Origin: an uncultured Clostridia bacterium
GTDB lineage: Bacteria > Bacillota > Clostridia > Christensenellales > UBA1242
Reading direction: 5' to 3'
Assembly (NCBI GenBank): GCA_944383375.1
Contig: CALWPG010000004.1
Location: forward strand, 42,423 to 106,422
Length of the DNA: 64,000 bases
In this document: in pieces, positions 1,129 to 64,000 of the stretch
How the letters are laid out: every line of letters starts with the position of its first letter
Position numbering within the stretch: the first letter of the stretch is position 1
The notes under the pieces: generated by a model
Told to the model about the DNA's origin: nothing
Seen by the model: only the letters and a program-made list of their open reading frames with translations
Databases searched by the model: none
Program-made: the position numbers and the translations under genes

Positions 1129-2547
1129 TTACTCGTGAACATTCAATGGGAGTTTACCCAAGTTTTCGCTACTTTTATTGTAGTATACGTAACATGGCTT
1201 ATCGTCTTTTTCTTGTCTATAAACTTTTTCAAAAATTTTTTTGGCCTGGAGATAGTTCCCATTTTGAAATGCTCTTACTCCATTTTCGAACTCTAAATGA
1301 TGTTTTACCAATTTTTCTCGCTTCTGTCTTTCGTAAACTTCAAGGCATTCAAAAACAGATTGTGTTATCCCCTGAGCCTCAACTTCTCCAACATATCTAT
1401 ATGATAATTTAAAAGACGTAGGCAAGAAATTTAATGTATTTTTAGTTATCAACATATTTGTTCCAAATGCTTGATTGATTTTGTCTATCTCTGCCATAAT
1501 ATTTAAAGTATTTGTAACTAGTGTTGGTACTTTTCTTTCCTCATCTCCAACCACACCAAAAATAACTTCATCTGTATGAATAATTAATCCAACATCTAAA
1601 TTTGGCATATCTTGAGTCAAATTTTTTTGTTTAATTGCGCGAGAAATATTTATAGCACAAGTAATTGCACTTTGAGGAGTTGTAAACACTGACAAAATAC
1701 CATTTTCAAGATATTTATCAACAAATCCACCAAATTTGCGAATTATTGGAGAAACCACGTTTATATAAGAATTTACACAATTAAAATTTTCTTCTAAACT
1801 TAACGTTTTTGTTATAAAAGCACTACTTTTTATGTTGCAAAATAAAACAGTAGCCGTTTTTTTAACTTGACTGCCAAGTTCCAATTCCAAAACACTTTTT
1901 TTACCAAGAAATTTTATAAGTTTTTTAGGCACAAACTTTTCATACTGAGCATTAGTTTGTTTTATTACTTCATCTTTTATTTTGTAATTATCATTTATTT
2001 TTTTGAGTGAACTTTCAATTTCTTGAAACTGTTTTGTTCCACCTATGTTAATTTTATCCTTCACTTCTCCATATGCAAGTCTTTTTGTGACGGTCTCTAT
2101 TTTTTTAACAGGCCTTGTGACAACGGCGAATGTAACTGAAATCACTATAAGATATATTATTCCAACTAATATCATCCAATAATAGTTGTTATTATTTGTA
2201 GTAGATATGTTTAGAGCAGTTCTAACTATTATTGCTGACTGGTTTGTCAAATTGTTTATACTAAATAATCCAAACATAATAGCACCAAATACCAGTGTTA
2301 TGGGAACCGTTGATAAAAAAAGTACAGTATTTAATTTTCTCGTACGAAGAAATTTAAAAAACAGTACATTGCCACTCACAATATTTATCAAATTAAATAC
2401 CAAACTAACATAGGCTAAAGTTGAAAAATTTATCGATATAGTATTTCCAATTATTACAATACTAGAAAAAAGATATCTAGAAGTTAGCATACCTGCTACC
2501 AAAGATACCAAAAAAACCACAATCCAAATTTTTGTACCAGTTTTCAT
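1129..2547 (-). CDS. Membrane-anchored class III adenylate/guanylate cyclase
   Basis: N-terminal transmembrane segments and a HAMP-like linker, then a cyclase core (ATVLFCNIKSSAF...FGGFVDKYLENGILSVF...IHTDEVIFGVVGDEER). Confidence 0.7.
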   Translation of the reverse strand: MKTGTKIWIVVFLVSLVAGMLTSRYLFSSIVIIGNTISINFSTLAYVSLVFNLINIVSGNVLFFKFLRTRKLNTVLFLSTVPITLVFGAIMFGLFSINNLTNQSAIIVRTALNISTTNNNNYYWMILVGIIYLIVISVTFAVVTRPVKKIETVTKRLAYGEVKDKINIGGTKQFQEIESSLKKINDNYKIKDEVIKQTNAQYEKFVPKKLIKFLGKKSVLELELGSQVKKTATVLFCNIKSSAFITKTLSLEENFNCVNSYINVVSPIIRKFGGFVDKYLENGILSVFTTPQSAITCAINISRAIKQKNLTQDMPNLDVGLIIHTDEVIFGVVGDEERKVPTLVTNTLNIMAEIDKINQAFGTNMLITKNTLNFLPTSFKLSYRYVGEVEAQGITQSVFECLEVYERQKREKLVKHHLEFENGVRAFQNGNYLQAKKIFEKVYRQEKDDKPCYVYYNKSSENLGKLPLNVHE

Positions 2548-23541: not shown

Positions 23542-24450
23542 TTACATTTCAATGTGATCGGTTTTTGGTTTTTCAAATAATAACAACTTTTGTATTAAAC
23601 AATCTAATTGGACAAGTGTGGCATTGGGTTTGGCTCCAAGTTTACATTTTTCTAATTTACTTATAATCTTTTCTCTACCTTCGCTGGTTTGCAACAATTT
23701 TTTAACATGTAATATTCCAGCATCCATATCCTCATGATTGGACATCCAATTTACAGAACTCTCTCTATCATAAACCCAAAGAAAACGGTTGATTACCTCT
23801 TCAATTGTTTTGCACTTTGCATTATATGATTCGTTTCTAATTTCCTTAATCTGTTTGTCATATAAAAGTTTCAATTTTGACAAATTTGGTGCAATTCCAG
23901 GCGCCTCACCAAATGCACTAATTTCAGCTTGTCTTAAAACATTATGATCAATGGCATTATAATCAATTTCAAATCCAGCTCTGTTTGCAAGTTCTGTGAG
24001 AAATATCATTTTAACTCTGCCATTACCTTCTCTAAAAGGATGAAGCACATTAAATTCATTTGAATAATAACTGAACAATTCAACAAATTCACGTCTAGTT
24101 AAATTTTTTAAATAATTATCTTTTCTTAAATTGTTGAAAATTTCTTCCATGCCATATAAAAGAAACTCAACATTATAGAACATACTATATCCTTTTTGTA
24201 TGTTCACAGTGCGATATTCGCCCGCCCATGGATATATATCTTGAAAAAGATATTTGTGAATGTAACAAAAAGTCTTCGCATTTAGTGGCAATTTATTTAG
24301 TTTCTCGCTATCAAAAAGCTCAAAAGCACGCAATGATGATAATTTTTGCTCCATTTTGATACATTTTTGCTCGTCTACTATGCCAAGTTTATTGTCAAGA
24401 TATGGCATAGTTTTTTGTTTTTCAGGGTCGGCCCTATCATAGTCTAGCAT
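23542..24450 (-). CDS. fic: Fic-family protein (putative AMPylating toxin)
   Basis: Fic motif HPFREGNGRVKM. Start set to ATG 24450, preceded by GGGAGGA. Confidence 0.85.
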   Translation of the reverse strand: MLDYDRADPEKQKTMPYLDNKLGIVDEQKCIKMEQKLSSLRAFELFDSEKLNKLPLNAKTFCYIHKYLFQDIYPWAGEYRTVNIQKGYSMFYNVEFLLYGMEEIFNNLRKDNYLKNLTRREFVELFSYYSNEFNVLHPFREGNGRVKMIFLTELANRAGFEIDYNAIDHNVLRQAEISAFGEAPGIAPNLSKLKLLYDKQIKEIRNESYNAKCKTIEEVINRFLWVYDRESSVNWMSNHEDMDAGILHVKKLLQTSEGREKIISKLEKCKLGAKPNATLVQLDCLIQKLLLFEKPKTDHIEM

Positions 24451-24626
24451 CAATCATCCTCCCTATTTATTATTTTATTAATTTCAATATCTGCGTCTTT
24501 TGACTTGGCAATTCTCTCCATAGCTTCCTCGTCTTCTTTTGTCAATTCGTAGCCATCAATAGACCAAATATTGCGTATGTTTTCAATATATTTTTTTTGC
24601 TTTTGAGTCAATTTACAATCATCCAT
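24450..24626 (-). CDS. VbhA-like small antitoxin candidate (58 aa, not in the ORF track)
   Basis: MDDCKLTQKQKKYIENIRNIWSIDGYELTKEDEEAMERIAKSKDADIEINKIINREDD. GAGGAG RBS. Its TGA overlaps the fic ATG (TGATG). Confidence 0.6.
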   Translation of the reverse strand: MDDCKLTQKQKKYIENIRNIWSIDGYELTKEDEEAMERIAKSKDADIEINKIINREDD

Positions 24627-37217: not shown

Positions 37218-38348
37218 TTAATCTCTACTTTTTTTCTTTGGTGCCACAATAATTACAAAAAGTATGCACTCTATACCAAGCACAACATACCACCACTCAA
37301 CATAAAAGTTGAAAACCACACCTTTTATAGTTGTAATTTGGATTACACCTCTTCCCGCAGTTAAATCATCGGCATCAACACCAAAGACAATACTACCCAT
37401 TGTATCTGTACGAAATACATTTTGAGCACCAACTAAATTTTCAACACGAGCGAGCACCTCTTCATTTGGATGTTCATAACTATTGCCTTCGCCCACAGAA
37501 ATCACTGCATAATTTGGATGAGTCGCAAGTAAAAACTCTTGTGACGTGGAAGTATTGCTACCGTGATGACCAAGTTTTAATATGTCACAACTTATGTCTA
37601 TGTAATCATCAAGCACTTCTTCTTCAACTTCTATTTCAGCATCGCCAGTAAGCAGTATTTTTCTGTATTTATATTCAATCATAATCAGTGGTGAATAATT
37701 GTTGGCATCGGTGTATTTTTGTTGTGTCGGAGATAAAAATTCAACAGTATAATCACATTCAGAATCTAAAAATAGTGGGTTGTTCATGCGTTCGGTTACA
37801 AATACCATACAATCCTCTGCATCTGCTTTGTCTATCATTGCTGTGTAACACTTTGTATTACAAGTGTTTACTTGATCAGTTGACCACCCGTTCTCTTTCA
37901 TTTCTTCATCAGTGTAAACATTTGGTCTATAAAAACTACGGATATTAAAGTTATCAAATACGACATCGGCTCCACCCACATGATCTTCGTCTTGATGAGT
38001 TGCGATAAAATAATCAATATCACGATCATCTCTTGAAGAAAACACACCATTCAAATATGAAAGCAAATCATCCTCACTTGAACCTGGACCAGCATCTACA
38101 AGCATTATCTTGTCATCTGGAAGTTCAATCAATATGCTATCGCCCTGACCGACATCAATAAAATGAACTTTTAATTCACAATTTTCTACATCTTCTGTAA
38201 GTGGCGGATTGATTAGTTCATTTACCCAAACTTCTAGTTTGTCATTAAAAAAGAAAGTAGAGCAAATTATTAATGATAGCACAAAAAATATCGCTAGTCT
38301 CACTTTCATATTTCTCTTTTGATTATTTTTAGATTTTGTTTTAGCCAT
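37218..38348 (-). CDS. Membrane-anchored MBL-fold hydrolase (ComEC C-terminal-domain-like)
   Basis: HFIDVGQGDS, HQDEDHVGG and LGHHGSNTS metallo-beta-lactamase motifs, with N- and C-terminal TM helices. Confidence 0.75.
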   Translation of the reverse strand: MAKTKSKNNQKRNMKVRLAIFFVLSLIICSTFFFNDKLEVWVNELINPPLTEDVENCELKVHFIDVGQGDSILIELPDDKIMLVDAGPGSSEDDLLSYLNGVFSSRDDRDIDYFIATHQDEDHVGGADVVFDNFNIRSFYRPNVYTDEEMKENGWSTDQVNTCNTKCYTAMIDKADAEDCMVFVTERMNNPLFLDSECDYTVEFLSPTQQKYTDANNYSPLIMIEYKYRKILLTGDAEIEVEEEVLDDYIDISCDILKLGHHGSNTSTSQEFLLATHPNYAVISVGEGNSYEHPNEEVLARVENLVGAQNVFRTDTMGSIVFGVDADDLTAGRGVIQITTIKGVVFNFYVEWWYVVLGIECILFVIIVAPKKKSRD

Positions 38349-41202: not shown

Positions 41203-42627
41203 TCAATACTGAATACCCCAAACCACCATATGCTTTGCCTTTTCTTTGCAAACGACACATTTGTCGCCGTCAGATACAGGTTCATCGGTGATACATCTAG
41301 ATTTTATTCCACCGATCTCTTTCATTTTAAGCTCACATTCTTGCTTGCCGCACCAATGTGAATAGATAAAGCCTGGTTTTGTTTTTATAATTTTTTCCAC
41401 CTGAGAGATATCATCAGTTCTGTACGTTAACTCATCTCTTCTTTTTAATGCTCTATCATACAAATTTTGTTGTATAGATTTCATCAAATTGAGAACTTCA
41501 TTGACTATGTCGCAGTCCACCTTTACATTCATCTTTTCTCTAGTATCACGCCTTGCAAGAGTAATTTCGCCGTTTGCAAGGTCCCTTGCGCCAATTTCAA
41601 TTCTGACAGGAATACCATTTACTTCATGTTCTGCAAATTTAAATCCCGGTGAGCGATCTGAATCATCACAGAAAACTGATATATTTGCCTCTGATAAAAT
41701 TTTCAAATATTTATCAGCAAGTGCCTTGACTTCGGCACTTTCCCCTATTGGTACAATCACCACTTGCCTTGGAGCTATGTTTGGTGGAAGTACAAGACCG
41801 TTGTCATCACTGTGAACCATAATGAGTGCACCAATCATGCGAGTTGAGCAGCCCCACGAGGTTTGGTATGCATACTGCCATTCGTTATTTTTATTTAAAA
41901 ATTTTATGTCATATGCTTTTGCAAATTTTTGCCCAAAATAATGTGAAGTTGCACTTTGCAAGCTTACACCATTGTACATAAGTGCTTCAACAGTGTATGT
42001 GTAATCAGCGCCTGCAAATTTTTCCTTTTCTGTTTTCTTGCCACAAACCGCAGGAATTGCAAGATATTTCTCGAAGAAATCTTTGTAAACGTTGAGCATT
42101 TTAAGTGTTTCTGCTTCAGCTTCCTCTTTTGTGGCATGAACTGTGTGACCCTCTTGCCACAAAAATTCACGCGTTCGAAGAAATGGTCTTGTTTCCTTTT
42201 CCCAGCGCATAACATTGCACCATTGGTTGTAGAGTTTTGGAAGATCGCGATATGACTTAACTTTCAAACTATAATAATCCGAAAAAAGTGTTTCGCTTGT
42301 TGGTCGAATGGCAAGTCTTTCATCCAAAATGTTTTGTCCTCCAACTGTAACCCAAGCGCACTCAGGTGCAAAACCTTCAACAAGTTCACTTTCTTTTTTC
42401 AAAAGATTTTCAGGAATAAGCATAGGCATAGAAACATTTTGATGACCAGTTTGTTTAAAAATTTTATCCAAAACACTTTGCATCTTTTCCCAAATAGCAT
42501 AGCCATTTGGCTCTAAAATAACACATCCCTTGGTGTTTGAATATTCAGCAAGATTTGCGCATCTGACAATATCAGTATACCACTTTGCAAAATCTTCATC
42601 ACGTGAAGTTATTGCTTTGTTTTTCAT
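41203..42627 (-). CDS. proS: Proline--tRNA ligase, archaeal/eukaryote-like type
   Basis: 474 aa. No INS editing domain. C-terminal Zn-binding tail CVVCKEKAKHMVVWGIQY. Confidence 0.9.
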   Translation of the reverse strand: MKNKAITSRDEDFAKWYTDIVRCANLAEYSNTKGCVILEPNGYAIWEKMQSVLDKIFKQTGHQNVSMPMLIPENLLKKESELVEGFAPECAWVTVGGQNILDERLAIRPTSETLFSDYYSLKVKSYRDLPKLYNQWCNVMRWEKETRPFLRTREFLWQEGHTVHATKEEAEAETLKMLNVYKDFFEKYLAIPAVCGKKTEKEKFAGADYTYTVEALMYNGVSLQSATSHYFGQKFAKAYDIKFLNKNNEWQYAYQTSWGCSTRMIGALIMVHSDDNGLVLPPNIAPRQVVIVPIGESAEVKALADKYLKILSEANISVFCDDSDRSPGFKFAEHEVNGIPVRIEIGARDLANGEITLARRDTREKMNVKVDCDIVNEVLNLMKSIQQNLYDRALKRRDELTYRTDDISQVEKIIKTKPGFIYSHWCGKQECELKMKEIGGIKSRCITDEPVSDGDKCVVCKEKAKHMVVWGIQY

Positions 42628-42698
42628 GATTTTCTCCTATTTTATATCTAGTTTTCTTTTTACTATAGCACTTTTAAAGCAATAAGTAAACATAAAAT

Positions 42699-42732
42699 AA
42701 AAAAATACTCGCATTGCTGCGAGTACTTTTTT
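42699..42732. terminator. Bidirectional hairpin terminator (ends the collagen-like gene)
   Basis: A-run, TACTCGCA-ttgc-TGCGAGTA, T-run. Confidence 0.75.
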
Positions 42733-42741
42733 GAGTTGTTG

Positions 42742-43536
42742 TTATGGTCCAGTTGGCCCTGTTGGTCCGGTTGGTCCCGTCGCACCAGTTGGTCCCGTTG
42801 GACCAGTTGCACCTGTCGCTCCTGCCGGGCCAGTTGGTCCTGTTGCGCCTGTGGCTCCTGCCGGACCGGTTGGTCCCGTTGCCCCTGCTGTGCCTGCTGC
42901 TCCAGTTGGGCCCGTAGGGCCTGTGGCTCCAGTTGTTCCTACAGTTCCTGCTGGTCCGGTAGCTCCTGTGGCACCGGTTGGACCTGTTGTGCCTTGTGGA
43001 ATGGTTAGGTTCAAGAAAAAGTTTGGCGCAGTTCCCGTTATAGTGGCTGCTGCTGTAGTTCCTGGCGCTCCCGTTGTTACGGTACCAATGGCAAATATTG
43101 GTGTAACACCAGTTGCTCCAGTAGCTCCAGTCGCACCAGTTGGACCCGTTGCACCAGTCGCTCCCGTTGGACCTGTTGGTCCCGTTGCCCCTGCTGGACC
43201 GGTAGCTCCAGTCGCACCAGTAGCGCCGGTTGGACCTGTTGCGCCTGTGGCACCAGTTGTACCTTGTGGCCCTTGTATTCCCGCAAAACCTTGAATACCT
43301 TGAATTCCTTGAGGTCCCTGAGCACCAGTTGGTCCAGTTGCTCCTGTAGGACCTGTAGCACCGGTAGGTCCGGTTGCACCTGTTGGTCCTGTCGCACCTG
43401 TGGAAGGACCAGTTGGGCCTGTTGGACCGGTTGGACCTTGTGGACCACGTTGACCAGTTCTCACCGTATTTGTTACAAAAATGCTTTCGCAACAAGGTGG
43501 TGGTGTATTATTACAATTACATGGCATCGTGTTCAT
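42742..43536 (-). CDS. Collagen-like triple-helix-repeat (GXT) protein, BclA-like
   Basis: Frame gives GPT/GAT triplets. N-terminus is [16 protein letters not shown]. The likely true start is ATG 43527 (MPCNC), 9 nt after AAGGAG. The five other long ORFs over this span are repeat shadows. Confidence 0.8.
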
Positions 43537-43619
43537 CTCCTTTTATTAGTGTATTCATTTCATTGTATGTTTGATAATTCAATATTGTTAAATTATTTGA
43601 ATTATTTAAATTTTGTGTT

Positions 43620-44120
43620 ATGATTATAAACATGAAAGTAAAAACAAAACAATGTAATAGTAAGATGTGCATAGTTTGTGGCTTGGAAAACCCAAACAGT
43701 TTAAAAGCACCTTTTTACGAAATGGAAGATGGCAGTGTGATAAGCATATTTGAATTTAAGGAAACTCATCAAAGTTACCCAGAACGCACTCATGGTGGTT
43801 TAATTACCGCGATGCTGGATGAACTTGGACTTAGGTGCATATGGCCAATTGAGAATACTTTTGGTGTGACAATGGAAATAACTACAAAATTTAGAAAACC
43901 AGTTCCTTACAACCAAAAACTCAAAGGTATTGGCAAAGTAATTTCAAACACACCAAGATTTATTCAAAGCCATGCAGAAATTCTAGATTTGCAAGATAAC
44001 ATTTTGGCAGAGGCAAATATTAAGTACTTAAAATTTCTTACAGATAAAATTGTTTTAAGTAATGTAAACGCAGAAGAACATAATATTTTTGTACCTGATG
44101 ATGTGAAAGAAATAAATTAG
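43620..44120 (+). CDS. PaaI/hotdog-fold thioesterase
   Basis: N-terminal CxxC, then HGGLITAMLDELG, typical of the PaaI family. The start is uncertain (43620 or 43632). Confidence 0.65.
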   Translation: MIINMKVKTKQCNSKMCIVCGLENPNSLKAPFYEMEDGSVISIFEFKETHQSYPERTHGGLITAMLDELGLRCIWPIENTFGVTMEITTKFRKPVPYNQKLKGIGKVISNTPRFIQSHAEILDLQDNILAEANIKYLKFLTDKIVLSNVNAEEHNIFVPDDVKEIN

Positions 44121-46541: not shown

Positions 46542-48281
46542 TTATTTTAACAGTTTTTGAAGATATTGCTGAACTTTATCTCTTGTCAATTTATACTGGC
46601 TAGATTTTTCTGATGACGAAACGCATTCTCCTCCCAAATGCGTAAAAGTTTTTTTGCTCATTTGGTTTTGATTATTTATATTAAAATAAATCTCATTAAA
46701 TTGCTGATAAGATGGATAATAAAATATATATTTTATAATTTCCAAGATGAGTCTTGTATTTTTAACTTGTTTAGATAGTTGGACTTCATTAATAAATACC
46801 TTTTCTCCTTTTTCAATAATAACAAAGCCACAAATCTTGCCATTATTATATATTATTATAAAGTCATTGTTTTCATTTTGGGCATTTGTATATACATTAT
46901 TTTTCCAAATTTTACCATCATTTTCGGTTACATTATAACCAAGTTCGATCATATTGTCTTTTATTATCTCAAAGCACAAGTCCAATTGATATTCTGATAA
47001 AAATTTTTCATGATGAAATTTAAAGCCTTTTACAAATTTATTGTAGATTTCTACTCCCAGTTCACAATAAAAATTTGAAGGTATTTCATAAGATCCTGTT
47101 GATAAATAAAATTTTGCAGGACAATATCTGCACAGAGAGATATAGGGACAATTTCTGCATTTTGCTTTTTTAGAATACAATCTAGTTTTTATCTTTTGAA
47201 GATTGTATACGCATTCCAATAAATTTCCTTTTTTGTAAACCTGATATTCATTTTGTAGACAAACACACATACAAACATGCAAAGAAGAATCTATAAATAG
47301 TGAATCATCATTTTGTTTACACTTAAAAATGCGATCATTCTGTTTTGTCTGGCTGAAAATTTTTAAAAATTTTTTTCCAGCATTATTTTGCTTTGACAAA
47401 TAACTTATAATTTCGGGTACGGATATTTGTTGGGGATTTATTTTTTGACACTTGCCCATTTGGGGAAAAATTAAATAATCTGATCTAAAACTATTATTAA
47501 ATTTTTTAGAATATGCTTTAATTTTGTCAAAATATGACTTATTTAAATTCGAAATTATACTCTTTGTTTTAACATCAATACCTTTATTAATTAACATTTC
47601 AATATTTTTATCAACAGTACAAAACGAATTTTTTATTCCAGTAAATTCACTATAAGAGGTTTCATCATATCCGTATAATGATACTTCTATAGAATATGGT
47701 TTATATTTGCTCAAGCAATCAAGAATTTGTTTAGTTAAATTATATCCATTTGTATTTAAATTGATAACAAAGCCCTGTTTATATAAATACTTATATATTT
47801 TTATAAAATCTTTATGAATAAAAATTTCACCACCAGTCAAGGTTATAAAATTACATTTAGCTCTTTTTAATTCTTTTGCTAAACTGACTATATTTTCATA
47901 AGTTATATATTTGATTTTATTTTTATCCACATAACAATGAGAACATCTAAAATTACATACATTAATAATTTCTATCAGACAACTTTTTACATATAAAAAA
48001 GAATTTTTATAATTAATTTTTGTCTTTGACTTCACAAAGCCACCTTTAATCAATAAATACAAAACACTATTTCTGATTTTAAGACTTTCAATTTTACCAC
48101 AATGAAAGTATTCTTGTATGCATTTTATAACCTTAGTCATTGATAAACCCTGAAGAATCAAATTTGCTACAACGGCATTCTTCTCATCAAAAATTATATA
48201 ATTACCGTTACGATTATCATAAACTTCAAAACCTTTATCGTGATTTTTAATACATACATCATCGTTGATTTGATATTCCAT
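46542..48281 (-). CDS. Radical SAM/SPASM peptide maturase with an N-terminal PqqD-like RRE and a C-terminal GNAT-like domain
   Basis: CNFRCSHC (CxxxCxxC), SPASM CRNCPYISLCRYC, and an N-terminal ~90 aa wHTH-like region (NAVVANLILQGLSMTKVIKCIQEYF). Start reset to MEYQINDD (ATG 48281, AGGAG RBS). The track start overlaps the intergenic hairpin. Confidence 0.85.
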   Translation of the reverse strand: MEYQINDDVCIKNHDKGFEVYDNRNGNYIIFDEKNAVVANLILQGLSMTKVIKCIQEYFHCGKIESLKIRNSVLYLLIKGGFVKSKTKINYKNSFLYVKSCLIEIINVCNFRCSHCYVDKNKIKYITYENIVSLAKELKRAKCNFITLTGGEIFIHKDFIKIYKYLYKQGFVINLNTNGYNLTKQILDCLSKYKPYSIEVSLYGYDETSYSEFTGIKNSFCTVDKNIEMLINKGIDVKTKSIISNLNKSYFDKIKAYSKKFNNSFRSDYLIFPQMGKCQKINPQQISVPEIISYLSKQNNAGKKFLKIFSQTKQNDRIFKCKQNDDSLFIDSSLHVCMCVCLQNEYQVYKKGNLLECVYNLQKIKTRLYSKKAKCRNCPYISLCRYCPAKFYLSTGSYEIPSNFYCELGVEIYNKFVKGFKFHHEKFLSEYQLDLCFEIIKDNMIELGYNVTENDGKIWKNNVYTNAQNENNDFIIIYNNGKICGFVIIEKGEKVFINEVQLSKQVKNTRLILEIIKYIFYYPSYQQFNEIYFNINNQNQMSKKTFTHLGGECVSSSEKSSQYKLTRDKVQQYLQKLLK

Positions 48282-48295
48282 AAAAACTCCTGCAT

Positions 48296-48323
48296 AAGAA
48301 AAAGAAGTGGTATGCCCACTTCT
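48296..48323 (-). terminator. Intra-operon hairpin attenuator between precursor and maturase
   Basis: Minus-strand AGAAGTGG-gcata-CCACTTCT followed by TTTTCTT. Confidence 0.45.
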
Positions 48324-48328
48324 AAATA

Positions 48329-48406
48329 CTAACAAGCATCTTGTCCATTTGCTACTTGCCAGCAACCATCATCAAAACTTTCTGAATTGTTAATGTTAAT
48401 AACCAT
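48329..48406 (-). CDS. Candidate RiPP precursor peptide, 25 aa (not in the ORF track)
   Basis: MVININNSESFDDGCWQVANGQDAC. AAGGAGG lies 6 nt upstream. An in-frame ATG at 48412 would give 27 aa. Sits 47 nt upstream of the rSAM gene. Confidence 0.65.
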   Translation of the reverse strand: MVININNSESFDDGCWQVANGQDAC

Positions 48407-58670: not shown

Positions 58671-58688
58671 GACAACACATTGTCATGT

Positions 58689-58759
58689 GTCACTCCGAGC
58701 CTTGCTTACAGAGACGGACAAGCGAGGAGTCCCTGAGATTTCTCAGTGCGAGGAATCTC
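58689..58759 (+). repeat. Hairpin-repeat family: one full copy plus fragments upstream of the RT
   Basis: GTC-ACTCC-GA-G...C-GA-GGAGT, then fragments GAGATTTCTC and CGAGGAATCTC. Same family as the 60208-60575 field. Confidence 0.7.
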
Positions 58760-58806
58760 AATCTGACAAAAAGTGAAATTTTTCAACATTTTTTGCAAAT
58801 AGTTTG

Positions 58807-58833
58807 TTGAAACCTGCTTTAGTATGTTAAAAT
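58807..58833 (+). promoter_or_regulatory. Putative extended -10 promoter of the RT gene
   Basis: TTGAAA, 15 nt, TGtTAAAAT. Leaves a ~20-nt leader with an AGGAG RBS. Confidence 0.35.
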
Positions 58834-58859
58834 TTAATATACTACAACAGGAGAAAATT

Positions 58860-60071
58860 ATGAATTTGGATTTTATTGGTCAAGTTGCTTTTTTCAAGAA
58901 AAAAACTGGCAACGATGTACGCAAACTTTGCAAATTTAAAAACAAATCAAGTATTGAATACAATGCATCTCTGAGCATAAAACAGATTTTAGAGCCACTT
59001 GTTGAAAAGGAAATGAGAGACATCAATGGCATGACAGAAAAATTTATGCGAAGATTAATGGCGAACAGAATGGGGCTTTTCACAATTGTCAAGTTTGATT
59101 TTAAGGACTTTTTCCCTTCCATTTCACTTCGCTATGCCTATGAATTTTTTATTAAAGACAAGATTAATGAAAAATACCACCCACTGTTTGAAAACTATGT
59201 GGAGAGTGTGAAATACAATCTTCAAGGTTTGCCGCCAAGCAGTAACTTTGCTGCAGTTATGGCAAAAGCCATGAAAGAGGGGATTTTTGCTTTCTTTAAA
59301 ATTGACGGACTTACAGATTGTTTTTATTATGATGATACTTTTGTCATGTTATTTAAAAAGCGCGTCAATCATATCTATATAAAATTTGGCATTGAAGAGT
59401 GTGTAAAAAATGTGTTTAACAAGAAAAATAGCTTTAAATACCAAAACAAAGTAAAAGTGAATAACGACAACGAAAAATATGTATATTTGAATGATGAAAA
59501 ACTTCCCTGCTCATTCAGCTGGCTTGGATATAAATTTGGAATAACCTATGGTTGGCAAGGCATTGGTATGACAATTGACATCGCAGATGAGATGATAGAA
59601 CATCTTCGCCAAAAGATTTTTGAAGCAGTAAGGTTAAACTATCCTGACACAGAAAAATTGCGACTAATGCTGTACTCCAGCACAAGAAACGTCGTCACAA
59701 AGATTGAAAAGCAAGGTCAGGACAACAGAAATGTCAGCATAACGCCATTCAAGTTCTATAAAAACTTGGTCAAATATAAAGAACTCATTGGAGAAAATAC
59801 AGTTCGCTTTTTGCAAGGTGTTGTAATTGATGCGTTCAGACAACAGACAATCGCGCTGCCATATTATCTATACGACCAAAAAATTGAAAGTGGCTACAAC
59901 ATTTGGCACAATCTTTTCTCACATAGAGCGATTGTTCTCAACAAAAAATTTGGATGGTCGTATCCAAAACTTTACAATATCCTAAAGAAACATACAAATT
60001 TGGACTTACATAACAAGCCATACAGTGAACTCGCAAAAATTTATATAGATAATTTTGTAATAAAATACTAA
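58860..60071 (+). CDS. Stand-alone reverse transcriptase (403 aa), unclassified Abi/UG-like
   Basis: RT motifs VKFDFKDFFPSI (motif 2), LQGLPPSSNFAAV (motif 3), CFYYDDTFVML (YxDD, motif 5) and SWLGYKF (motif 7). Start ATG 58860 follows AGGAG. Confidence 0.8.
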   Translation: MNLDFIGQVAFFKKKTGNDVRKLCKFKNKSSIEYNASLSIKQILEPLVEKEMRDINGMTEKFMRRLMANRMGLFTIVKFDFKDFFPSISLRYAYEFFIKDKINEKYHPLFENYVESVKYNLQGLPPSSNFAAVMAKAMKEGIFAFFKIDGLTDCFYYDDTFVMLFKKRVNHIYIKFGIEECVKNVFNKKNSFKYQNKVKVNNDNEKYVYLNDEKLPCSFSWLGYKFGITYGWQGIGMTIDIADEMIEHLRQKIFEAVRLNYPDTEKLRLMLYSSTRNVVTKIEKQGQDNRNVSITPFKFYKNLVKYKELIGENTVRFLQGVVIDAFRQQTIALPYYLYDQKIESGYNIWHNLFSHRAIVLNKKFGWSYPKLYNILKKHTNLDLHNKPYSELAKIYIDNFVIKY

Positions 60072-60078
60072 AATCGTT

Positions 60079-60106
60079 TTGAAATAGTTAAAAACTGTGA
60101 TATCAT
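60079..60106 (+). promoter_or_regulatory. Putative extended -10 promoter just after the RT stop
   Basis: TTGAAA (60079-60084), 16 nt, TGaTATCAT (-10 at 60101-60106). Confidence 0.4.
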
Positions 60107-60112
60107 GTTGTC

Positions 60113-60200
60113 AAGGCTGCGAGAGCGGCTGAATTAAGAATTCGAAACAAAGTCACTGACGTTGTTTCATTCAGATGTTGCTTCGGCGACATCTTTTTTT
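60113..60200 (+). ncRNA. Candidate ~90-nt structured small RNA adjacent to the RT
   Basis: Hairpin 1 is GGCTGC-GAGA-GCGGCT (GNRA loop). Hairpin 2 is TGAAT..GAAACAA-11 nt-TTGTTTC-ATTCA. Hairpin 3 is GATGTTGC-TTCG-GCGACATC (UUCG loop) plus T7. Confidence 0.45.
60174..60200 (+). terminator. Rho-independent terminator (RT / small RNA unit)
   Basis: GATGTTGC-ttcg-GCGACATC followed by TTTTTTT. Confidence 0.8.
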
Positions 60201-60207
60201 ATGTAAT

Positions 60208-60575
60208 GAGATTCCTCGTCGTAAACTCCTCGGAATGACAGGAGTAGTGTCATGTCGAATTCCATTTTGTCATCCCGAATGTAGTGAGAGATCACAACCT
60301 TTTGTCATTTCGAGCGAAGCGAGAAATCTCAGCCTCATGTCATCCTGAGGAGCGACAGCGACGTGAGGATCTCGTGTACGCGCCCTGTGGGCGAGACTCC
60401 TCGCTTTTGGCTCGGAGTGACACGCTACTTCGCTTTTGTCATTTCGAAGTGCGTAGCACTGAGAAATCTCAGAGATTCCTCGTGGCAGAGCCACTCGGAA
60501 TGGCAATAGGTTGTACTGCCTCGGAACGACAGGATGAGTGCACTTTCAGAATGACTGTGGTGCCTAGAATGACAA
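60208..60575. repeat. Field of at least 7 hairpin repeats in both orientations (consensus GTC-AYYYC-GA-[variable stem-loop]-GA-GRRRT-CTC)
   Basis: Copies at 60208-60240 (rev), 60269-60293 (degenerate), 60304-60330, 60339-60373, 60393-60421 (rev), 60438-60470 and 60472-60504 (rev), with fragments to about 60575. Visibly GC-richer than the flanks. Confidence 0.8.
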
Positions 60576-60626: not shown

Positions 60627-63600
60627 TCAAATCCATCTTAAGGCACTCGTTGTGGCGTCTCCACGTACAAAACTCAAGCTACCGGTTGAGACTCTAAAGT
60701 AAGAAGAATAACTAGTTTGCATTGATGTTGGTATCATTGCTATCCAACCACGAGTAGATGCTCCAGTTAATGTTAAGGTCACTGATTTAGTATAACTAAT
60801 AATATTTAATCCATAATTTTGAACCATTTCTGGAGTAGACGATGATGAGGTATAAACATACAACGTACCAGTTATTGTTGGAAGACCATCTATGGTAATT
60901 TTCCCTTGATATGGAGAATTAATACTATATTGAGAACCTGTAATGTATGGAGAACCTTCAATATCCAAAGTTGTATTTGCTGACTTATTAATCGCTATAT
61001 TCGTATAATCTTCACCAACATTAGCACTACCAGATACGCTGATTGCAATACCTTTTGTTGAAGTGTTTGTAGAAGCAAAAATTGCTGTTGCTCCACCAAT
61101 AGTTCCACCACTAACATTTAAAGTCCCACCTATAGTATAAATACCATAAGTACTTCCCTTTGAGCCTATAATTGTAGGAACTGACGCACTTGATTGACTT
61201 ATTGTAATGGTTCCCACATTTGACGTGGAATTTCCATTATGTATAGCATAAGGACCATCAATGTACCCACCTTGAATAACTATAGTGCCATCACCATAGT
61301 TGAATATACCTTTCATTCTTGTTGGCATGGAGTATCCACATTGTATTGTACCACCAGTGATCATTACTGTGCCGTTGCTAGCATTGTACAATCCATATGC
61401 AGTGTTTGAATTTCCAATTGTACCACCATTAATAGTCACAGCATGAGCACCATTAGCTCCATTATAAACTCCAGTACCTGCCAAAATCACAGTTGGTGTT
61501 TGGTCTGAAGTTTGGTCTATGGTAATAGTACCAGAACTAGTTGATCCATGGCCATTTCGAATTCCAGTAGATGATGCATTAATAGTACCACCATTAAAGT
61601 TCACGGAGCCGTTGCCATAATTGTATATACCATTTCCTGAGGAGCCGGCTGTCAATGTTCCACCATTTACAGTGATATTTCCGGTTGAATTGTTGTAAAT
61701 AGCATTTCCACAAGCAGAACCACCAATGTCACCATCTGTTACTGTGACTTTACCAGTGGAGTTATTAAATACTCCATAAGATGCTGTTCCATTTCCGATT
61801 GTTCCACCCGAAATTGTGACAGCATTTGTTCTTGTGGAATTGTTATAAATTGCACTCTCAACCCCGTCAATATTCGCAGAATCAGAAACTGTAAGCATGC
61901 TATTGCTATTATTTAAAACAACGCCTCTGTAGCCATCTATGTGCCCTCCTGATATTGTAATACCACCAGGAGCATCACTATATACTCCAGCAAAACCATC
62001 AGTTTCAGCACCCGTAACTTGGCCTCCACTCACTACCACAGCTCCCACAAGTGTTGAGTAGTTATAAATTCCATAATTACCACTAATTGAGGCTGTACTA
62101 GAAACAGTGATTACACCATCAGCATTTAGAATTCCATAGTAACCATTAGCCTCACCTGCTGAGATAGTTACATTTCCCGATACGTTGTATATTGCACTAC
62201 AATCTGCTGAAGTAGAACTTTGTATTAATCCACCTAAAATTAAAATTTCTCCAGTTGAATCATTATAAACACCATAAGTGCTTGACGTGGAACCGATTGT
62301 TCCGCCTGAGATTGTGACTGCATATTGACTACCTGTTGGTGATGAGTAATTTTCTATTGCATTGTCAACAGCATTAATAACAGTTGGATAGGTACTACTT
62401 GCTTGGCTAATCGTTACTGTGCCAGTAGTTGTTGAAGCAGTACTACCATTCACAATGGCTCGTGAACCAGTAATTGTCCCTCCAGTTATTTCAACTGAAC
62501 CATTTCCATAGTTCACCACAGCAATACCTTTAACATCACCAGTCGGATCATTTGCAGCTGTTATCGTTGATGAGCCTGAAATAGTTACAGTTCCACTCTC
62601 ATTTTGAATTGTCTCCATAGGAGCACTTACTTGCGAATTATTAATTTTTAAAATTCCGTTGTTTGTATTTGTAATCGCACTAGTAAGACAAATTATAGTA
62701 TTGTTATCAATGAAATTCAATTCTCCATTATCGTTCGTTATAGGCAGCATTGATGTTATTTCTGAGTCAGCAAATTCCATGTATCCACTATTATTAACAA
62801 AAGCAGGACCTAGAGGTGATTCTAAAGTAGAGCCAGAAACTGTAACGGTCCCTTGATTGTTAGTAATAGCACCTAACCTTACACTTGTAGTAGGTACATC
62901 TATGTAACAATTAATAACATTCAGAGTGCTGCTAGTGACAGTAATGGCACCATCAATACTTAACTGAGCACTTCCGCCACCCAAGGTGAGGGTGCTTGCT
63001 GTTTGAGTTATGTTTCCTGTCACGGTGACTGCTGAATTACTTATTATTGTAAGAGGTATGCCGACAAGAGCAGTGTCAGTTGTGTGATTACGTTGAACAA
63101 TTAAAATATCGTTATTTTCAGCAAACTTTGTTGCATCGGCTAATTGTGCGTATGAAATAGATCTTGTTTGGTTGCGCACATTTGCAACTCCAAGGCAAAG
63201 GTCACTTGTGCCATTTAGGTACAATGACTCAGAAACTATTCCCAGTCTGAAATGATAGCCCCAATCTAGTGCTGTGTCGGTATTTTCATAATATGCAAGA
63301 TATGTTCCATCTGTTTGAGCGCTTTCAGTAATTTCAATATCTCTCGTAGTAAAAGTTCCTTCAATAACCACACCAAAATTGTTGCTTGTTGTGTTTGAAA
63401 ATGAAGTTGTACTTGACCTTGCTCTGATGCTTGAAATTGTAGGTGAACCTGTAAGTCTCAACCAACCACCATCATTCATGTCTATGCTATAGTAACCGCT
63501 AATTGATCCACCACTAACAGTTACTGTTCCGTTTGAACTATCAATACCAGAATAACTGGATGAAGAACTACCTGTAATTGTTCCGCCCTGTACATCTATT

Positions 63601-64000
63601 GCATTTTCACTAGTGCCTTGATTAATAATTCCGTATCTTGTTCCTGTGATTTGTGTTGATGTTCCACTTATAGTTACAGTGGCATTACTTCCCTGATTAA
63701 ATATACCCGAATTTCCACTAATGGTTCCACCAGTGATTGTTAAATCACCAGAATTATTAATTGCATAAGCGCCATAAGCTGTTCCACTTTGAATTGTACC
63801 ATTTTGAATTTGGACTACTGCTGATGATGAAACATTCCATATTCCTATATTGGTTCCAGTAATTGATGTATTTGCACCTGAAATCATAACTTCAGCAGTT
63901 GAAGTATCAGAACCATCTCCATTTTGGATTCCTCGATAACCTGTCAATGTACCACCAGTTATGGATACTGCTCCATCAAAATTAACCAAAGCAGTAAACG
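60627..64000 (-). CDS. Very large secreted/surface protein with beta-helix-type Gly/Thr/Ser/Asn repeats (C-terminal part; N-terminus lies beyond the window)
   Basis: The frame stays open to the window edge. Dozens of ~30-aa repeats of the form (V/I)T(I/V)SGGTIxGxxxGIxNxxxGxV. Confidence 0.8.
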   Translation of the reverse strand, partial: FTALVNFDGAVSITGGTLTGYRGIQNGDGSDTSTAEVMISGANTSITGTNIGIWNVSSSAVVQIQNGTIQSGTAYGAYAINNSGDLTITGGTISGNSGIFNQGSNATVTISGTSTQITGTRYGIINQGTSENAIDVQGGTITGSSSSSYSGIDSSNGTVTVSGGSISGYYSIDMNDGGWLRLTGSPTISSIRARSSTTSFSNTTSNNFGVVIEGTFTTRDIEITESAQTDGTYLAYYENTDTALDWGYHFRLGIVSESLYLNGTSDLCLGVANVRNQTRSISYAQLADATKFAENNDILIVQRNHTTDTALVGIPLTIISNSAVTVTGNITQTASTLTLGGGSAQLSIDGAITVTSSTLNVINCYIDVPTTSVRLGAITNNQGTVTVSGSTLESPLGPAFVNNSGYMEFADSEITSMLPITNDNGELNFIDNNTIICLTSAITNTNNGILKINNSQVSAPMETIQNESGTVTISGSSTITAANDPTGDVKGIAVVNYGNGSVEITGGTITGSRAIVNGSTASTTTGTVTISQASSTYPTVINAVDNAIENYSSPTGSQYAVTISGGTIGSTSSTYGVYNDSTGEILILGGLIQSSTSADCSAIYNVSGNVTISAGEANGYYGILNADGVITVSSTASISGNYGIYNYSTLVGAVVVSGGQVTGAETDGFAGVYSDAPGGITISGGHIDGYRGVVLNNSNSMLTVSDSANIDGVESAIYNNSTRTNAVTISGGTIGNGTASYGVFNNSTGKVTVTDGDIGGSACGNAIYNNSTGNITVNGGTLTAGSSGNGIYNYGNGSVNFNGGTINASSTGIRNGHGSTSSGTITIDQTSDQTPTVILAGTGVYNGANGAHAVTINGGTIGNSNTAYGLYNASNGTVMITGGTIQCGYSMPTRMKGIFNYGDGTIVIQGGYIDGPYAIHNGNSTSNVGTITISQSSASVPTIIGSKGSTYGIYTIGGTLNVSGGTIGGATAIFASTNTSTKGIAISVSGSANVGEDYTNIAINKSANTTLDIEGSPYITGSQYSINSPYQGKITIDGLPTITGTLYVYTSSSSTPEMVQNYGLNIISYTKSVTLTLTGASTRGWIAMIPTSMQTSYSSYFRVSTGSLSFVRGDATTSALRWI

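Follow-up and report, generated by a model that had tools for sequence, protein, structure and literature searches.

A Drt3a-related orphan reverse transcriptase and its candidate 88-nt RNA partner at a recombining locus of uncultured Clostridia

Introduction

The defence-associated reverse transcriptase system DRT3 consists of two reverse transcriptases (RTs), Drt3a (UG3) and Drt3b (UG8), and of a cis-encoded non-coding RNA (ncRNA) with an ACACAC loop (PMC13174585; classified in PMC9226505). Drt3a copies a very short RNA template into tandem repeats: it produces poly(dTdG) from the RNA, Drt3b produces poly(dCdA) without a template, and the double-stranded DNA (dsDNA) product drives defence, for which the intact YVDD of Drt3a is needed (PMC13174585). 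Here we analyze a 64-kb stretch of DNA from an uncultured Clostridia bacterium (contig CALWPG010000004.1), termed the window in what follows, in which a gene at positions 58860-60071 encodes an RT of 403 amino acids. Sequence comparison places this protein in the Drt3a/UG3 lineage. Its locus lacks Drt3b and carries, directly after the RT stop codon, a conserved and structured 88-nt ncRNA.

In Mestre et al., UG3 is reported solely in combination with UG8; in one variant the ncRNA precedes UG8, and the two genes are often on opposite strands. A solo Drt3a is mentioned neither by these authors nor elsewhere in the literature searched. Two other systems are relevant to the reading proposed below. 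In DRT10, repeat addition has two "inflexible" requirements, namely an A-B-A' template and a stem-loop directly 5' of it, and the short template of telomerase is divided into alignment and templating segments, with a helix delimiting it on the 5' side (PMC12632851).

Results

Family placement of the RT

The translated open reading frame (ORF) agrees with the initial annotation of this DNA, which had listed the motifs FDFKDFFPSI, QGLPPSSNFAAV, YYDD and WLGYKF in that order. The gene is described by the following features.

58860-60071, plus strand: RT gene, 403 amino acids (ORF and translation; ATG start, stop at 60071)
58804-58859, plus strand: promoter-like region and ribosome-binding site, read by eye, conserved in locus L001
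58807-58812: TTGAAA of the promoter-like region
58825-58833: TGnTAAAAT of the same region (15-nt spacer)
58850-58853: GGAG preceding the ATG at 58860

Judging from these elements, the RT promoter would lie at 58804-58859, a region that the consensus promoter scan did not report.

Neither RVT_1 nor any other Pfam domain matches the window protein; RVT_1 gives a weak signal in relatives only (66 of 100 aligned members of the wider family). PADLOC, NCBIfam and PHROGs provide weak matches (expectation value, E, ~1e-5) over residues 70-205, with models named retron, Cas-associated RT and "polymerase". A sequence-profile search of the PDB returned zero matches and a fold search was needed instead. 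The AlphaFold2 model, built on the family alignment, has a predicted local distance difference test (pLDDT) score of 85 and a predicted template-modelling (pTM) score of 0.78. It matches RT structures, DRT9 best, then retron RTs and G2L4, with template-modelling (TM) scores of ~0.5 and 12-15% identity. The RT nature assumed by the initial annotation is thus upheld by structure prediction, and the model indicates an RT-fold protein that standard annotation overlooks.

A word-indexed search found 11 clusters only, all from metagenome-assembled genomes of uncultured Clostridia from gut and rumen, and all with full-length ORFs. By exhaustive profile search, 185 representatives match the clade profile over its full length. 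The PADLOC Drt3a model recognizes 89 of the 100 aligned members of this wider family (best 1e-46), with a signal that declines toward the window clade and reaches 4e-10 in P0011, the nearest orphan outgroup. When the window-clade profile was aligned by hhalign with a Drt3b-linked Drt3a subgroup, the probability was 100%, with an E of 9e-53 over 389 columns. The metagenome loci of these Drt3b-linked relatives, retrieved with the 14-sequence subgroup, contain an ORF of ~670 amino acids 150-190 bp downstream of the RT, and each of the 10 such ORFs tested proved to be Drt3b (E 1e-93 to 1e-124). This identifies the wider family as genuine DRT3 and makes the window protein a divergent Drt3a homologue, not the unclassifiable RT that had been announced.

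In a neighbour-joining tree, unrooted and built without reference UG groups, the orphans (the window clade, P0010-P0012, P0014-P0017, P0019, P0022 and P0023) group as a single cluster with the motif C context [H/S/Y]-Y-x-D-D-F. On this sequence evidence, we place the window RT in a small orphan subclade of the Drt3a/UG3 lineage, within the Class 2 UG/Abi RTs. The ratio of non-synonymous to synonymous substitution rates (dN/dS) of the RT is 0.06-0.2 across all clade pairs compared, and the C-terminal half contains many invariant residues without any tie to catalysis in the family alignment. In one family member, P0009 (483 amino acids), the match is limited to the C-terminal 63% of the query, at 54% identity, and the N-terminus is longer and dissimilar; this could come from a fusion, a mis-assembly or a domain swap.

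No second RT or Drt3b exists among the large ORFs of the 64-kb window, and no Drt3b was found in the orphan loci L001-L024 or L107; for the outgroups P0012 and P0014 the surroundings covered are contigs shorter than 2 kb. The view of a compact single-gene RT lacking a protein partner and any additional Pfam domain is hence borne out. A known class, Drt3a/UG3, has been found for it. This agrees in part with what the initial annotation had named as refuting its view, a known class with partner elements just outside its reading, although these partners, Drt3b and the ACACAC ncRNA, are genuinely absent.

A conserved ncRNA downstream of the RT

Directly after the RT stop codon, we predict a short AT-rich RNA with its own promoter and terminator.

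60079-60106, plus strand: ncRNA promoter (TTGAAA, 16-nt spacer, TATCAT, extended -10 TG; 10/12 matches in the scan)
60113-60200, plus strand: predicted 88-nt ncRNA (conservation, covariation, fold)
60115-60130, plus strand: stem-loop SL1, GAGA loop
60131-60143, plus strand: single-stranded linker
60131-60142, plus strand: putative A-B-A' template directly 3' of SL1, with A = GAAUU (60131-60135), B = AA (60136-60137) and A' = GAAUU (60138-60142)
60144-60168, plus strand: stem-loop SL2
60173-60194, plus strand: GC-rich terminator hairpin, followed by a U-run to 60200

This ncRNA follows the RT stop in every window-clade locus, in the gltX/giant-gene and SpoU contexts alike. All clade loci also share the upstream TTG...TGnTA promoter pattern (TTGnnn-16/17-TGnTAnnnT). 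The conserved sequence blocks are AAGGYUGCGAGAGCGRCUGAAU and a long hairpin GAAACAA...UUGUUUC. RNAalifold yields three stem-loops, in which 13 of 25 pairs show compensatory two-sided changes. Pairing extends to 97.3% of the cells on the named structure; column shuffles reach 86% (0/500) and slid partners 36-56%. The window ncRNA folds with a z of -4.2. G-U pairs, promoter and U-run assign the ncRNA to the RT strand. The terminator that had been attributed to the RT itself, the only one after the ORF (60173-60200), belongs to this separately promoted small RNA.

A covariance model of this RNA, R1, whose E-values are rough owing to a shortened calibration, finds one copy in the window and one per clade locus. 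It also matches upstream of the outgroup RT P0014 (28% identity), on the same strand (L106, E 2.4e-5). A weaker and partial match (E 0.0085) lies on the opposite strand, ~500 nt downstream of the P0016 RT (24% identity), in L107; it begins with AAGGUCUUAGAACUGAAUU and has, by eye, a TTGACT-16-TATAAT promoter just upstream. In these outgroups position and strand vary, but the distance to the RT does not exceed 500 nt. Linkage of RNA and RT thus holds across contexts, while the position and orientation of the RNA are variable. Drt3b-containing loci give no R1 match. Rfam has no match to the ncRNA: only tRNAs reach the gathering score, with sub-threshold noise near the RT. Altogether, the sequence data point to the 88-nt RNA as the RT's real partner, not described before, which would be transcribed here and to which the RT would bind.

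In the P0010/P0011 group, weak R1 matches recur at one position upstream of the RT (L017:1721-1820, L023:36-139 and L016:2884-2950). They correspond to a GAUAUAA...UUAUAUC hairpin and a terminator, and the one in L017 begins no more than ~15 nt from where the giant gene is called to end. They may represent a degenerate relative of the ncRNA and we do not count them as evidence.

A putative repeat-addition template

The linker just 3' of SL1 is the only conserved single-stranded stretch of the ncRNA. An A-B-A' arrangement is present in 9 of 9 distinct linkers, with repeat units of 7-10 nt. Examples are given below.

Window: GAAUU-AA-GAAUU
L018: GAAUU-ACCC-GAAUU
L001: AAUC-UCAA-AAUC
L005: AUUU-AACC-AUUU
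L009: AAUU-ACCGUC-AAUU

A and A' change in concert (AAUU/AAUU, AAUC/AAUC in L001, AUUU/AUUU in L005), and a summed repeat length of 34 compares with 20.8 +/- 2.3 in shuffles (0/5000). The window ncRNA shows both template features described for DRT10, the pattern and its place 3' of SL1. As a repeat-addition template the pattern is suggestive. No genomic (GAATTAA)n copies exist in the 64-kb window, as expected for a non-integrating product.

Active site

The catalytic positions of the window RT are the following.

59097-59099, plus strand: D80, the motif A Asp
59328-59339, plus strand: motif C, Y157-D158-D159-T160, one residue off register from the family Y-V-D-D

Motif C has an Asp in the x position and a Thr replacing the second catalytic Asp. 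This is not a sequencing error, since the independent and 99% identical P0001 also departs from the family, with YYDDA. A perfect YVDD and the motif A Asp are kept in P0002, P0003, P0006-P0008 and P0010-P0012. In P0004 (L005:6001-7212) and P0005 (L007:6037-7248), a Lys two residues past the motif A Asp is replaced by Glu: motif A reads FDIEN and FSLEN, respectively, against FDFKD/FDMKN elsewhere. Judging by its position, this Glu could be a compensating acidic residue.

Exchange of the RT-ncRNA module and flanking repeats

The comparison with closely related strains delimits a module at the locus, and GC-rich units resembling repetitive extragenic palindromes (REP-like units) lie at its edges.

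58749-60240: exchange/inversion module of 1.49 kb containing RT promoter, RT and ncRNA (blastn of L001-L003 against the window)
58680-58771: GC-rich REP-like units on the gltX side (GTCAYYYYGAR...GAGRAATCTC), forming inverted repeats with the other side
60201-60560: GC-rich REP-like cluster on the giant-gene side, ~10 units in both orientations
58723-58771 and 60434-60482: inverted-repeat arms, 49 nt, 80%
58687-58701 and 60409-60423: inverted-repeat arms, 15/15
L001:5340-5915, L001:7340-7540 and L018:8220-8470: REP-like units in related loci

Relative to L001-L003 the module is inverted and 87% identical (13% divergent), whereas its flanks are collinear and 98.8% (gltX side, over 5.6 kb) and 98.4% (giant-gene side) identical. 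The synonymous divergence (dS) is 0.05 for gltX against 0.70 for the RT. Both RT orientations also occur among more distant species, without flanking inverted repeats. We read this, from the sequences, as an allelic exchange of the whole RT-ncRNA module at a variable site and not as a switch. Such a swap with inversion between strains is expected for a defence-type locus under diversifying turnover.

Near-identical strains also differ in the adjacent giant surface-protein gene, which is hypervariable (window 60627-64000 compared with L001:1-5288 and L003:1-377). Between L001 and the window, its sole common stretch is 272 nt at 72% identity, and the 3' end of the L003 gene is 98% identical to that of the window. 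L003 therefore combines a window-type giant-gene end with an L001-type RT module, which means that giant gene and module are exchanged independently.

Each REP-like unit (~35 nt, GTCATTCCGAG-N12-GAGGAATCTC) can form a small hairpin, and units are sometimes in tandem at 35-nt spacing. Eight half-sites are found in the AT-rich 64-kb window, all within 900 nt of the RT, versus 0.64 expected, so that the GC-rich repeats reported earlier on both sides of the gene, between gltX and the giant gene, are found as described. Among relatives, these units adjoin the RT only in the window genome and where RT identity is at least 72%; L005, L009, L010, L012, L014, L017 and L107 have none beside the RT. They mark the edges of the recombination module. 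The GC-rich units are lineage-restricted REP-like dispersed repeats, outside the conserved RT-ncRNA system.

Gene neighbourhood

The window is a housekeeping region (PFOR, clpC, ileS, proS, ppdK, recO, era, ybeY, yqfD and gltX), without any cas genes. The RT has gltX upstream and the giant surface-protein ORF, convergent and without Pfam match, downstream. The contexts encountered among orphan RTs are listed here.

gltX/giant-gene context: gltX, RT, giant surface protein
SpoU context: SpoU methylase, RT
P0010/P0011: giant LRR_5/Flg_new protein, RT, typA
P0016: rpoB/C, RT, Flg_new protein
Large surface genes: window 60627-63989 (minus strand); L014:1-7784; L107:7150-10413; L007:9128-10954; L005:1-3390

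Orphan RTs adjoin very large surface-protein genes, with beta-helix-like repeats, LRR_5 and Flg_new, in three unrelated neighbourhoods (gltX, typA and rpoB). In the SpoU context, large surface genes (LRR_5, Bact_surface_Ig-like) are 2-3 kb from the RT. No template repeat/variable repeat (TR/VR) link was found between orphan RTs and these surface genes, and their proximity may only reflect common variable hotspots.

Some other window ORFs match PADLOC models: PDC-S04 (1.6e-55; 23542-24453, minus strand), LmuA/MBL-fold (1e-26; 37218-38348, minus strand), pVip-like radical SAM (3e-15; 46542-48365, minus strand) and PycC-like cyclase (9e-10; 1129-2547, minus strand). These matches are probably a generic domain likeness in housekeeping genes, not defence systems. 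In addition, local GC content rises to 0.43 in the region 42001-44000, against a background of ~0.33, and the ORF 42674-43495 (minus strand) beside proS has a repetitive low-complexity N-terminus.

Discussion

We propose that the locus is a two-component RT-ncRNA module descended from DRT3, which would produce an ncRNA-templated tandem-repeat single-stranded DNA with an anti-phage role. The lineage would have lost Drt3b and the ACACAC-template RNA, leaving a fast-evolving Drt3a homologue that is now paired with a different 88-nt RNA. This RNA would have a promoter of its own, immediately behind the RT gene, and would in addition form part of the transcript that reads through from the RT. The RT would bind this RNA, SL1 acting as the 5' boundary of the template, and copy the A-B part of the linker (GAAUUAA in the window). 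After this, the nascent DNA would pair again with the downstream A' (GAAUU) and a new cycle would begin, as in DRT10 and telomerase, giving a predicted (TTAATTC)n product. By analogy with DRT2, DRT3, DRT9 and DRT10, this product may act in anti-phage defence, a role that we infer because of the family and of the strain-level turnover. We have high confidence in the anatomy of the locus and moderate confidence in the mechanism; the proposal as a whole is one to which we incline, with some reserve.

A bolder form of this proposal would see in the locus a self-sufficient, minimal telomerase-like repeat writer (403 amino acids and 88 nt). It would make lineage-specific heteropolymeric DNA repeats of 7-10 nt, (TTAATTC)n here, and use no Drt3b, SLATT or other protein partner. 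In some lineages its active site would be non-canonical or remodelled (Y-D-D-T; D/E/N-E combinations), and it would be kept as a recombining chromosomal allele system in uncultured Clostridia of gut and rumen. We put this form forward tentatively, as a possibility that may well not hold.

Several observations weigh against the proposal. The window protein alone misses the PADLOC Drt3a models (threshold E 1e-3), and neither covariance model detects homology between its ncRNA and the DRT3-type RNA. The P0010/P0011 orphan clade has no significant ncRNA match (E 0.06-0.6). As to the template, the shuffle statistic ignores shared ancestry, which is why we treat A-B-A' as suggestive; A and A' sit in partly conserved AU-rich columns, and only two clear concordant changes back a selection on their identity. 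The neighbours are housekeeping genes, with no effector and no defence-island context. The YYDD that the initial annotation took for an in-register catalytic box is shifted by one residue: motif C of the window is Y-D-D-T, against x-Y-[V/I/G]-D-D in ~97 relatives, a misalignment that the initial annotation had itself named as grounds for abandoning its view. P0004 has YHLNEF, without the canonical catalytic Asp residues, and P0005 has YYINDF together with a Ser for the motif A Asp; both loci retain the ncRNA and are under purifying selection (L005 versus L007, dN/dS 0.063). Judging from these motifs, polymerase activity may be reduced, remodelled or dispensable.

An alternative would be that of an exapted, catalytically weakened RT-like protein, forming with the 88-nt RNA a ribonucleoprotein (RNP) that works without DNA synthesis, in RNA binding, sensing or regulation, A-B-A' being a relic or a protein-binding motif. 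Supporting this idea, three independent changes of the catalytic centre (YDD[T/A] in the window and P0001, HLNE in P0004, FS and IND in P0005) have occurred in a clade of ~9 sequences, compared with almost none in ~90 members of the wider family. The purifying selection seen in the Asp-less pair, the largely vertical inheritance at a chromosomal housekeeping site in several species and the invariant C-terminal residues unconnected with catalysis also go in this direction. On the other hand, most clade members keep YVDD and the motif A Asp, and the window protein has three acidic residues in place (D80, D158 and D159). The Glu gained in P0004 and P0005 may denote a remodelled rather than a lost site, and in the L005 lineage, too, A has changed together with A' (AUUU/AUUU), a finding not easily accounted for if there is no templated re-annealing. 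We find exaptation unlikely, though more likely than the other alternatives. Decay is another matter: the loss of Drt3b and of the ACACAC RNA and the altered motifs would suit a non-functional DRT3 remnant, but full-length ORFs in 11 clusters under a dN/dS of 0.06-0.2, a covarying, conserved ncRNA that has both promoter and terminator, and maintenance in species as distant as 24-32% identity leave this idea hardly any credit.

The other hypotheses concern the surroundings of the RT. Since the 1.49-kb module is inverted between near-identical strains, ends inside inverted repeat units and occurs in both orientations across species, with large surface-protein genes adjoining the RT, or only a few kb away from it, in four genomic contexts, one could think of a mobile or invertible cassette, retroelement-like or an invertase-independent switch, whose inversion would control the giant gene by phase variation. 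However, the two orientations differ by 13% (dS 0.70), as do old alleles exchanged by recombination and not a switching population, and the RT and ncRNA promoters are intact in both. The site (gltX/giant gene) is fixed over deep divergence, with neither target-site duplications nor a recombinase nearby. Distant species show either orientation without flanking inverted repeats (none in L004, L009, L010, L012, L005, L007 and L014), so that a conserved invertible element is ruled out generally and the cassette appears quite improbable. The initial annotation had expected a cognate RNA downstream of the RT. The expectation held for the RNA, in the form of the conserved 88-nt ncRNA; it failed for the GC-rich repeat array that had been designated for this role, which is missing beside distant members. 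The hairpin-capable repeats do co-localize strongly with the RT in the window, L001, L004 and L018, but they are lineage-restricted, occur in both orientations and variable number at the edge of or outside the exchanged module, and are lacking at seven loci that keep the RT, all of which still have an ncRNA match except L014 and L017 (weaker and partial in L107). With the RT moreover classifiable in the Drt3a family, the repeats are ruled out as cognate RNA and this first version of the system, an unclassifiable RT with an RNA made of its flanking array, is very improbable. Harder still to defend is an RT of a diversity-generating retroelement (DGR), a retron or a group II intron with overlooked partner elements. 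Weak retron RT matches (E ~1e-5) and the vicinity of large surface-protein genes, typical DGR targets, would invite this idea, but the score for NCBIfam retron_St85_RT, 22 bits, falls short of its cut-off of 235, Drt3a is the best family by profile comparison and no retron or intron RNA is matched in Rfam. Repeat search, short-word blastn and an adenine-mismatch-tolerant scan reveal no TR/VR, nor any repeat shared by the RT flanks with the giant gene or with other parts of the window, by which a DGR is rejected. The absence of group II, retron, DGR and cas hallmarks stated by the initial annotation is in line with the Rfam, TR/VR and window-ORF results.

The proposed RT-ncRNA module would have several implications. 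The RNA-templated half of DRT3 can persist alone with a different RNA, which raises the question of how single-strand repeat DNA, or the RNP itself, could act. If the A-B-A' reading is true, the clade offers a natural series of very small RT-RNA pairs with different programmed repeats, which would inform on the evolution of repeat addition between Drt3a, DRT10 and telomerase and would be of use as compact DNA-writing tools. The repeated changes of catalytic Asp residues under purifying selection make it a test case for RT exaptation versus remodelled active sites. PADLOC- and Pfam-type annotation overlooks the window clade entirely.

Comparison with known systems

The window RT shares with DRT3 a full-length Drt3a homologue without extra domain and a small structured cis RNA. 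It differs by the absence, at the window and orphan loci, of the adjacent Drt3b/UG8 (Class 1, alpha-Rep), by an ncRNA without ACACAC, by a predicted template that is a 7-10-nt heteropolymer varying by lineage, by the altered motif C and by the housekeeping context. The window locus falls outside the DRT3 system by two of the features that define it and were tested, Drt3b and the ACACAC RNA. With no second strand-maker in the window clade, the dsDNA mechanism of DRT3 cannot apply. Model R2, built on the ACACAC-type ncRNAs of Drt3a-Drt3b loci, gives no match in the window clade. We do not claim that the window ncRNA is a DRT3-type homologue: its 3' layout is similar (a hairpin with an 11-nt loop, a short linker and a terminator), but each covariance model misses the RNA of the other class.

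The gut-type DRT3 loci (L025-L064) show an arrangement of their own. Here drt3a and drt3b are separated by 150-190 bp, and this interval holds the ACACAC ncRNA, on the strand opposite to both genes (for example L033:7404-7509, L035:6691-6797 and L026:2580-2709, minus relative to drt3a), unlike in E. coli DRT3, where the RNA is downstream of drt3b. This strand is indicated by alifold energies of -34.5 versus -14.2 kcal/mol and by 41 G-U versus 3 C-A pairs; 15 of 30 pairs covary and the GNRA-capped terminator abuts the drt3a stop codon.

Retrons differ from the window system in that its ncRNA consists of three simple hairpins without a1/a2 pairing, and group II introns in that it has no Pfam maturase domain and no Rfam intron match. 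The likeness to telomerase would be mechanistic, by inference only: the window RT is bacterial, has 403 amino acids and contains neither TEN nor TRBD domains, unlike the telomerase system of TERT protein and telomerase RNA. DRT9 (UG28 RT and ncRNA) resembles the window system as an RT with a cis ncRNA and no protein effector. It is also the closest solved fold (9vma and 9nlv; TM ~0.5, E ~1e-7), at 14% sequence identity. The ncRNA of DRT9 lies upstream of its RT. DRT9 copies a poly-U template into poly-dA, whereas the single-stranded region of the window RNA has no U-tract. DRT10 (UG17 RT, ncRNA and SLATT; PMC12632851) likewise has a Class 2 UG RT, described as phylogenetically related to Drt3a. 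Its RNA has 137 nt, against 88 nt in the window. The PADLOC RT_UG17 model does not match the window protein, and the relatives score better with Drt3a than with UG17. No SLATT or other effector lies beside the RT, where the neighbours are gltX and the giant surface protein; SLATT models were not run on every ORF. By analogy, the window system would work most like DRT10 or DRT9, as an RT with a cis ncRNA and a repeat-bounded template, yet its RT is neither UG17 nor UG28.

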